Assembly: GCA_951406725.2 (NCBI GenBank)
Contig: OX597819.1
Coordinates: 22,630,001 to 22,694,000, forward strand
DNA length: 64,000 bases
Direction of reading: 5' to 3'
DNA from: Octopus vulgaris
Lineage: Eukaryota
Each line of letters starts with the position of its first letter. Positions within the stretch are counted from its first letter, which is position 1. A program made the position numbers and the translations under genes. The notes beneath the pieces were generated by a model. It ran no database searches. It saw nothing but the letters and a program-made list of their open reading frames with translations, and was not told the DNA's origin. Positions 29,926 through 31,899 of the stretch are shown here, piece after piece.

Positions 29926-31040
29926 ATGGTGTAAGAGAAACGAACTGCAAACTGCTTTACGCATTATATGAGGGAAGAAATTCTCGTTTGCACTTACTTT
30001 TGTACATAATTAGGAGTTGGTACAACACGCACATTATTTTCAAACACTCACCCTTGGATATATAAAAACCATACGAATTATTGCAAATGCATTTCCCCTT
30101 ATGTCGACATCCGCTACATGCTATACAAAAGTAAATGCATTCATGAATGATAAAATAGAGAAATACATTTATCAATAATAAAAGAAAATAATTGAGATTT
30201 CGTTATTTTAAAAGTGTTTAATTGAAGTAATGGTTGGATTTAATTCAGTCATAATTAGAATATGGGACGTCAGAAAATAATAGCAGCGACTCCATCAATT
30301 TCTAGGGATATCTGAAGAAGGAACTATATTCCGAAATATTATATCAGACTACGGGTGATTAAATTTATTATAGTCCATTCTATTCTTTGCATCATAATGC
30401 ATTGTTGTGCCATTCAAAATATTTTCTTCCTTAGAAAATATATTAGAAATTAGGCGAAAGTTCTTGATTGATACAATGTTTCAAAGTTACGACGTGAAAA
30501 AATATTTTGGTTGGTGTGTTATTTGCACAGATAGAGAGAGAAAAGAATTTAGAATCGATTTATGGAGAGAGAAAAACAGAAAGAGAAAGAGACCGAGAGA
30601 GAAGCAGACAAGCAGACATGCAGACAGAAAGACAGACAGACACATTGTTAGACAGAGAGCAATGAAAGAGTTGGATATCGTCATCTAGAAGAGAAGAGTG
30701 ATGGAGAGAGAGAGAGAGAGAGACATAGAAACTTGAGTTTTCTTATATCAAAAAAAAATATATTTCCAATACATCATACCGAAACCTAACAATTAAAATT
30801 CTTTAAACCTACGTTTTAGATTTCCTTGTGCTTGTGCAAAACTGGCAACTGCATTTACATCGGCTACTATACTGGAAATAACTAGAAGTAAATACAAGGC
30901 TATCTGTATGTGAATAGAAGAAAAACAGACGTAAAATAGCTCATGAGGTATACAGTTCTATATTTAAGAGATGAGGAATTATGTACATTATTTACATTAT
31001 TTACACTTGACGGATATTTGTCCTCATCTTGTTTGTTGTT

Positions 31041-31086
31041 AACACAACGTTTTAGCTGATATACCCTCCAGCCTTCATCAGGTGTC
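31041..31086 (-). ncRNA. Minimal hammerhead ribozyme, left arm (GAAA->AAAA)
   Basis: Reverse complement reads gacac CTGATGA a ggctg-gagggtatat-cagct AAAA cg TT gtgtt. Confidence 0.7.
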
Positions 31087-31532
31087 TTGGGGAAATTTCG
31101 AACCCGAGTTCTCATTCCTAAAGTATTTTTCGATGGTATTATTATTATTATTATTATTATTATTATTATTATTATTATTATTATTATCATTATTATTATT
31201 ATTATCATTATTCAGATCATTGGTTGGAATCTGAATCTTGGGGTTAGTAGCCTGCGCTCTTAACCACTACGCAATATGGCACAGTGGTTAAGAGCGCAGG
31301 CTACTAACCCCAAGATTCCGAGATCGGTTCCAAGCAGTGACCTGAATAATAATAATAATAATAATAATAATAATAATAATAATAATAATAATAATAATAA
31401 TAATAATAATAATAATGATAATAATAATAATAATAATAATAATAATAATAATAATAATAATAATAACAACAACAACAACAACAACATCGAAAAATACCTT
31501 AGGAATGAGAATCCGGGTTCGAAATTTCCCAA

Positions 31533-31578
31533 GACACCTGATGAAGACTGGAAGGTATATCAGCCGAAACGTTGTGTT
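31533..31578 (+). ncRNA. Minimal hammerhead ribozyme, right arm
   Basis: gacac CTGATGA a gactg-gaaggtatat-cagcc GAAA cg TT gtgtt. Palindromic AACGTT stem III, GUU site, one stem II mismatch. Confidence 0.8.
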
Positions 31579-31899
31579 AACAACAAACAAGATGAGGACA
31601 AATATCCGTCAAATATAAATAAGGTAAACAGCTCATGATATATTCGGTATTTTGATAATAATACAAAACCATTTTTAATGAAAAGGACCCGGATACCCTA
31701 GTTGTGACTGTATTGCAAGGAAGGTAATCATTTGTAGCCAAGTCTTAGAATTCGAAGATTGAATTTTAAATCGAAGACCAGTGAAGATGTAAAGAATATG
31801 GATATTTATTTGATATCATAACTATTTAGAAATTTCTAGAATACATGAAACAATGCCTTTTTGCTAAGGCGAACCTCGAAGCAGGTAAACATATGAATA

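Follow-up and report, generated by a model that had tools for sequence, protein, structure and literature searches.

A SINE-like inverted pair in the Octopus vulgaris genome as end pieces of a protein-coding Penelope retroelement with a tRNA-derived module

Endonuclease-bearing (EN+) Penelope/Poseidon elements encode a reverse transcriptase (RT) followed by a C-terminal GIY-YIG domain and occur as partial tandems or with an inverted, 5'-truncated partner (PMC8557442, PMC3846280, PMC11167929); in the available parts of these papers an extension of 30-40 nt at one end, a short target site duplication (TSD), a hammerhead in the pseudo-LTR and the lack of copies starting at its cut site complete the picture, and all of these features are shared by the element described here. 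The inverted partners together with the one-sided 30-40 nt extension are covered in the accessible sections of PMC8557442 and PMC3846280, the latter also reporting palindromes at the 5' ends of Penelope pseudo-LTRs and attributing them to self-priming. Opposite-strand pairs of minimal hammerheads, 100-700 bp apart, have already been reported for metazoan PLEs, to go by the available part of that study (Cervera and de la Pena 2014, PMC4209133). Regarding promoters, those described in the accessible text of PMC8557442, PMC3846280 and PMC11167929 are TATA/Inr-like or LINE-like only, and in Drosophila Penelope a LINE-like internal promoter with an intron was found (PMC2377424). The anole Poseidon protein, as presented in the available part of PMC11167929, nicks and extends both target strands in vitro, starts reverse transcription at two internal RNA sites, which define the extension, needs RNA 172 nt into the ORF, past the start site at 111-118, and does so with hammerhead cleavage being dispensable.

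Three further groups of repeats come close to the element in one or the other feature. The schistosome repeats Sm-alpha and Sj-alpha are tRNA-related, SINE-like and carry a type I hammerhead (PMC2770079, PMC8490949), so a tRNA head together with a hammerhead has been seen before; however, in the accessible portions of these sources they appear as stand-alone repeats for which no coding Penelope parent is named, whereas here the combination forms the end of a coding Penelope. Animal non-LTR retrozymes are non-coding hammerhead repeats tied to Penelope pseudo-LTRs, for which PLE enzymes were proposed (PMC7229834, bioRxiv 10.64898/2026.07.22.740005), and the available text of the preprint regards them as non-autonomous Penelope derivatives and contains neither 'tRNA' nor 'Pol III'. 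Unlike the copies described here, which are solo or head-to-head and whose RNA apparently is copied uncut, retrozymes are, in the same portions of text, head-to-tail tandems with a circular RNA model; we rejected a retrozyme assignment, the sampled copies being mostly solo or head-to-head and none of 51 3'-anchored arms starting at the cut site. The 3' fragments released by the hammerhead can be discarded as templates on the same count, as none of the 51 arms begins near that site. Finally, tRNA-derived SINEs and LTR elements bearing small RNAs, such as Cassandra, Helenus and Ajax, offer parallels to a tRNA-derived internal promoter module in the terminal repeat of a retroelement and to short copies beginning at the head (PMC10886601); according to the accessible part of that source these lack autonomy and rely on LINEs or LTR elements, in contrast to the autonomous Penelope found here, whose short copies have no lineage of their own.

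The window, i.e. the whole 64,000-nt stretch of Octopus vulgaris contig OX597819.1 that was analysed, contains two inverted arms diverging from a 4-nt palindrome, ATAT, at 31274-31277, which is self-complementary, common to both arms and corresponds to positions +5 to +8 of the tRNA-like module. Aligned to the family majority, the left arm (30950-31277, minus strand) is a 5'-truncated Penelope 3' end (pseudo-LTR) starting at about +5 of this module. It consists of a tRNA-derived head with a 6-nt deletion in the B box (31213-31277), an (AAT)n spacer reading (ATT)n on the plus strand (31137-31212), a minimal type I hammerhead, whose core is broken by a GAAA to AAAA change of the CpG decay type (31041-31086), and the 30-40 nt 3' extension (30950-30990), all on the minus strand; the extension, the Penelope 'tail' in the available sections of PMC8557442 and PMC11167929, is found in this arm only. 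In the right arm (31274-31629, plus strand) the corresponding head (31274-31344) comprises an A box (31277-31287), an anticodon-like loop (31301-31307) and a B box (31322-31331), each of the two boxes differing from the family majority by two changes; an (AAT)n/(AAC)n spacer (31345-31485) and the Penelope pseudo-LTR tail (31486-31629) follow on the same strand, the latter stopping at the shorter of two 3' ends known in the family. The hammerhead of this arm (31533-31578, plus strand) has an intact core with one mismatch in stem II and a GUU at 31571-31573, the predicted cut falling after 31573. The tails of both arms are 92% alike. A 9-nt direct repeat, AGCTCATGA, lies at 30938-30946 and 31630-31638 and forms the exact core of a 13-nt TSD with one mismatch (30934-30946 and 31626-31638, both read on the plus strand); the probability of finding, by chance, an identical 9-mer no more than 5 nt from each insertion end is about 3e-4. 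The TSD-bracketed head-to-head pair of head, (AAT)n and hammerhead tail is thus present as originally predicted, including the coordinates of both hammerheads and their different lesions, and the single insertion that was proposed is supported, one direct repeat bracketing both arms. Programs gave no class assignment here: ARAGORN found no tRNA in the window, Rfam (E<=1) matched neither a tRNA nor a hammerhead at the locus, and an Rfam match to mir-3160 was rejected, as it reflects the inverted repeat and stays under its gathering score.

The locus almost certainly represents the end pieces of a protein-coding Penelope retroelement. When the 2.8 Gb genome was searched, a frame resembling the Penelope endonuclease was seen upstream of the head in four of the best 30 tail matches, and a query built on the ORF end, which already contained the first part of the head, returned 30 loci (L031-L060), every one of which continues from the ORF into the A box of the head; a separate head match was found in 29 and a downstream tail match in 28 of them, with scattered 5' ends. 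Walking upstream revealed RT motifs and then the 5' junction of a tail with the ORF start, such tail-to-ORF junctions being the partial tandem that forms the pseudo-LTR. The order of the element is accordingly an ORF with RT and GIY-YIG, a stop codon, about 30 nt, the head, (AAT)n, a minimal hammerhead and two alternative 3' ends. Save for one alignment frameshift, a single ORF spans the majority sequence, and one locus, L245, is a natural near-full-length copy with a short pseudo-LTR and an inverted partner. Its RT piece matches Pfam RVT_1 (E 5.8e-8), and structure matches of the RT to TERT and group II RT are both weak. Its C-terminal piece falls with GIY-YIG-named Atlas clusters (score 0.96; PF01541 on 20-28% of their members), which serves as a lead, and by eye it holds what we take to be the GIY-YIG motifs; Pfam gave no GIY-YIG match in this piece or in three relatives, and its AlphaFold model (mean pLDDT 48) is too poor for use. 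We use the label Poseidon because of the RT-then-GIY-YIG order and because no CxxC linker was seen by eye. The family is present in sequencing runs of five organisms, in one of which contigs cross the junction of ORF and head; in this run search no RNA run was listed as carrying the family. An autonomous PLE sharing the tail, as anticipated in the original prediction, therefore exists, its RT and GIY-YIG ORF lying upstream of the head, and the view of a PLE-type ribozyme tail copied by a Penelope RT is borne out; the head, in turn, belongs to the 3' region of the autonomous element itself and is not the SINE component of a fusion with a Penelope tail.

Kinship of the head with tRNAs rests on its alignment to the genome's own tRNA genes and not on calls of ARAGORN or Rfam, the latter calling no tRNA on one near-majority head even at E<=10. 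The best match among the 26 distinct tRNA sequences of this genome used for comparison, which do not cover all isotypes, is a genomic tRNA-Arg(TCG) with 49/74 identities and a score of 62, while 59 other windows of the element score 33 at most against tRNA genes. Both boxes are preserved in the family majority, the A box at +8 and the B box at +53, i.e. at tRNA spacing, and 24 of 47 short arms keep the two of them intact. In the majority, 9 of the 17 stem pairs (acceptor, T and anticodon stems) are broken, the acceptor stem pairing at 2/7 and the T stem at 3/5 positions. A test of stem decay against that of invariant positions yielded p 0.017, a weak result that was given no weight, its 17 invariant positions being our own count. 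By alignment, the tRNA-like head proposed earlier is a tRNA-derived module, which the standard programs do not call a tRNA.

In the majority sequence of the family the hammerhead core is intact, helix I comprises 5 bp, helix II is preceded by one additional nucleotide and the palindrome is CG; this hammerhead agrees with the minimal Penelope-type motif as given in the available part of PMC4209133, differing from the metazoan PLE hammerheads shown there in a helix II of 5-6 bp rather than 7-8; it is a predicted ribozyme. The expected intact consensus was recovered, though only 24 of the 95 scored copies retain an intact core. Since an exact 20-mer of the tail occurs in 9,734 genome copies and its reversed control in none, the feature is far beyond chance. 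In unstranded RNA-seq no pile-up of read ends was seen at the GUU site, such a library being unable to show these ends reliably. As a side observation, the tail (31505-31629 on the plus strand of the window; L245:2954-3517, minus strand) contains an ATG close to its start, from which the frame of the ORF stays open across the hammerhead; a second ATG in the ribozyme core would join the ORF only if a GT-AG stretch of 38-47 nt, overlapping the 3' extension, is spliced.

The inverted dimer is an ordinary Penelope insertion pattern. The position-ordered sample comprised 90 loci with 92 arms (47 short, 17 long and 28 other), and an abutting inverted partner accompanies 33/47 short, 8/17 long and 21/28 other arms. 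In most two-ended dimers, the window locus included, one arm ends at 141-157 of the tail and the other at 172-178, and a fixed rule as to which arm bears the extension was rejected, since either end occurs on hot-spot arms. Target duplications of 11-15 nt are common in the sampled dimers, in a scan that lacked a shuffled control and overlooked the 3' ends of certain arms. In 40 dimers (from L002-L030, L061-L090, L125-L244 and L279-L328) the two arms share 27 private non-CpG variants versus 6.6 for shuffled pairs (2,000 shuffles, maximum 17), an excess compatible with a single template or source for each insertion, with several sources that differ slightly, or with later conversion of one arm by the other.

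What sets the family apart from the EN+ Penelopes described in the accessible literature is a tRNA-derived module with A and B boxes that, together with (AAT)n, separates stop codon and hammerhead, and the coincidence of this module with the main 5' boundary of short copies. Exact 20-mers are counted 879 times some 190 nt before the head, 1,013 times at the stop codon, 4,372 times in the anticodon arm, 9,064 times at the tail start and 9,734 times late in the tail (controls 0), the fourfold step from 1,013 to 4,372 thus being confined to 68 nt. Because such counts vary with the mutability of each 20-mer, the ends were mapped directly. Among the 92 arms, 23 have their 5' end at +5 to +30, 47 at -8 to +4, 5 at -9 to -30, and the remaining 17 between -38 and -776; put differently, 47 of the 69 arms reaching +4 stop within the 12 nt around the tRNA 5' end (-8 to +4), with 29 arms reaching -2 to -8 and a secondary cluster of 18 ending at +1 to +4. 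The end rate per nucleotide is 0.080 in this hot spot, 0.008 at +9 to +30 and 0.004 upstream of -30 (about 20-fold), the difference from the rate within the head having a binomial p of 1e-31; the arms are partly non-independent, because both arms were counted for two of the dimers and two loci resemble duplicates. An independent 3'-anchored sample, a few of whose 'tail ends' are internal deletions, gave 10/14 arms reaching +4 with an end in the hot spot, rising to 12/14 with two fold-back junctions scored at -14, and the reads of a second organism contain inversion joints as well as loose ends from fold-backs at -7, -4, -3 and +2. The arms at the window locus, beginning at +5, are near the inner edge of the hot spot.

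The best reading of the hot spot, and a plausible one, is that Pol III drives transcription from the module. We put it at about an even chance that the hot spot marks the RNA start of a tRNA-derived Pol III promoter and that the Penelope RT copies this RNA into the SINE-like pieces. Source copies with an upstream pseudo-LTR would be transcribed from about -7/-6, i.e. 13-14 nt ahead of the A box, which is the spacing of mammalian SINEs. Following published Penelope biochemistry, the Penelope protein would nick both target strands, and its RT would begin inside an uncut template RNA at two nearby sites, resulting in one long-ended and one short-ended arm. Reverse transcription started at the first junction of pseudo-LTR and ORF would run off the 5' end of the RNA and leave solo pseudo-LTRs, head-started and SINE-like, and a start at a later junction would give rise to ORF-bearing copies, randomly truncated; the cDNA end may often fold back on a local palindrome or anneal to the other arm. 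By analogy with the anole protein, the short copies probably are dead ends, because they lack the ORF-start sequence past the RT start that this protein requires in vitro. The fuller scenario, in which an autonomous Penelope captured a tRNA-derived A/B-box promoter, Pol III transcribes a terminator-free 2.5-kb unit and the RT sheds thousands of SINE-like pseudo-LTRs, we put forward tentatively, as somewhat short of an even chance.

Several observations speak for the Pol III reading. The boxes are intact amid the broken stem pairs reported above, and runs of four T are absent from the 2.5-kb sense majority, where 2.5 would be expected (codon shuffle, P 0.045); 49 copy fragments of this one family contain 6 where 32 are expected, while 28 other A-rich frames used as control show no depletion (35 vs 34.4) and another Penelope-type ORF of the window has 2 vs 2.3, the depletion being a weak signal, effectively of one lineage. 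Against it, seven of the nine loci with an ORF 5' start have a pseudo-LTR directly upstream and none begins at the hot spot (tandem pseudo-LTRs starting there were sought and rejected, 0/7); this upstream pseudo-LTR reaches the head in only one locus, passing beyond it into the ORF. A Pol III transcript is moreover uncapped, and translation would therefore need another route. Unstranded RNA-seq of a related organism, a library ill-suited to the purpose, displayed no pile-up of starts or ends, 78-83% of the reads continuing into unrelated sequence, and did not decide between the readings. In RNA runs X21-X23 about 6,600-9,600 reads per run fall on the 565-nt end region, mostly within longer host transcripts, where inverted pairs would form long hairpins.

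A structural stop, the main rival, which we consider possible but less likely, would have the RT stall, or its cDNA fold back, at the palindrome that immediately precedes the head, the tRNA piece being a passenger such as an old SINE insertion. Of all 26-nt hairpins within the 3' 2.1 kb of the element, the one at -15 to +10 is indeed the strongest (RNA -9.6, cDNA -5.4), about half of the hot-spot junctions are fold-backs by eye, the end rate is also raised at +5 to +8, close to the hairpin base, and rotifer Penelopes exhibit palindromic junctions and self-priming in the available sections of PMC3846280. The ends, however, lie mostly at or beyond the loop rather than at the 3' base of the stem, and, by eye, roughly every second arm with its end at -8 to -2 lacks a fold-back, which counts for an RNA end over a stall. 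No arm has its end in the native longer stem, the native sequence of this longer hairpin being found in 0/50 arms scored at -13 to +4, and the same end point recurs in solo arms (14 of 25 at risk end in the hot spot) as well as in arms joined to distant partners. Comparable structures do not act alike: a similar 5-bp palindrome in the tail takes only 5 ends of about 45, and at the hammerhead stems and the second palindrome no comparable step is seen (9,734 to 9,064).

Were the hot spot instead the RNA start of a TATA-like Pol II promoter, its coincidence with the tRNA module would be accidental, a reading that we regard as improbable. It can draw on a TATA-like motif about 28 nt upstream, overlapping the stop codon and at the right distance, on a putative short GT-AG intron in the 3' extension, on the translatability of capped RNA, and on pseudo-LTRs of Penelope bearing a promoter and often an intron (PMC2377424, PMC3846280, the latter as far as its accessible text goes). 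Yet it leaves unexplained the start 13-14 nt before an intact A box, the survival of the boxes amid stem decay and the absence of T4 runs.

An independent non-coding SINE family with source genes of its own, combining a tRNA head with a Penelope-derived tail, was the original prediction and is now very improbable, as the coding element carries the head and diagnostic sites are lacking. Copies starting at the head do exceed ORF-bearing ones by about 4 to 1, and the private variants shared within dimers imply that templates are not all identical. Nevertheless, 47 short arms and 47 ORF-bearing arms (17 from the position-ordered sample and 30 picked by ORF) have an identical majority base at every compared position of head and tail, and because short and ORF-bearing copies thus lack diagnostic differences we see no separate SINE lineage. 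Tail divergence amounts to 4-5%, with no significant difference between short and long copies in the position-ordered sample (0.040 vs 0.056, p 0.14); a younger short subfamily was rejected, since the p of 0.015 in its favour came from mixing differently selected sets. That head and tail travel together, as predicted, was confirmed, the tail lying at most 420 nt away in 41/47 short arms, and their presence in both the parent element and these arms disposes of a chance nesting. Heads without a tail are mostly due to later insertions in the spacer: of 11 such heads viewed, at least 7 pass from the spacer into another repeat and 3 have the tail further on. Apart from this, the (AAT)n spacer is often broken or abutted by other retroelements that themselves terminate in (AAT)n, some of them carrying LINE frames of the restriction-enzyme-like type, and acts as a landing pad that separates head from tail (L010, L018, L023, L028, L146, L183, L307, L309, L310, L318, L014, L131, L154 and L158).

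That a tRNA-processing, RNase P-like nuclease cuts long Penelope RNA at the module into short templates is hardly credible, for in spite of the secondary end cluster at +1 to +4 (18/92 arms), the acceptor stem pairs at only 2/7 and the T stem at 3/5 positions, and the 29 arms with ends at -2 to -8 reach beyond an RNase P site on its upstream side.

Other repeats of the window deserve mention. A second Penelope-like family is represented at 10138-11763 (plus strand) by a frame of 541 codons that lies beside (TA)n runs and whose product shows RT and GIY-YIG-like motifs, further pieces lying at 842-1342, 2494-3119 and 5902-6507; by eye it has a CxxC linker and is Neptune-like. A minimal hammerhead-like motif of another family at 38781-38807 (minus strand), between two (TA)n runs, is possibly the end of this second, Neptune-like family. 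An abundant short repeat of about 184 nt occurs at 31880-32110, 52443-52823 and 56860-57231, and no link to the insertion was seen.

In the accessible literature covered by our search, neither a Penelope with a tRNA-derived promoter module nor a Penelope-mobilised SINE was found. The family as such may already be listed in the repeat libraries supplementing PMC13282606 or PMC8557442; what is likely new, as no prior description was found, is the tRNA-derived module inside a coding Penelope, at which most of the short copies begin.

To our knowledge, Penelope RNA starts and the reasons for pseudo-LTR boundaries are largely unmapped outside Drosophila, and the 5' boundary seen here, which is sharp, can be counted and lies on a promoter module that can be recognised, offers a way to distinguish between a promoter and a hairpin stop. 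General caution should be undertaken with automated 'SINE' calls in such genomes, which may be Penelope ends. If the hairpin explains the hot spot, the element would be an ordinary Penelope insertion carrying a tRNA-derived passenger; if Pol III drives it, we would be dealing with a coding retroelement with a tRNA-type promoter, standing as a natural link from autonomous elements to SINEs.
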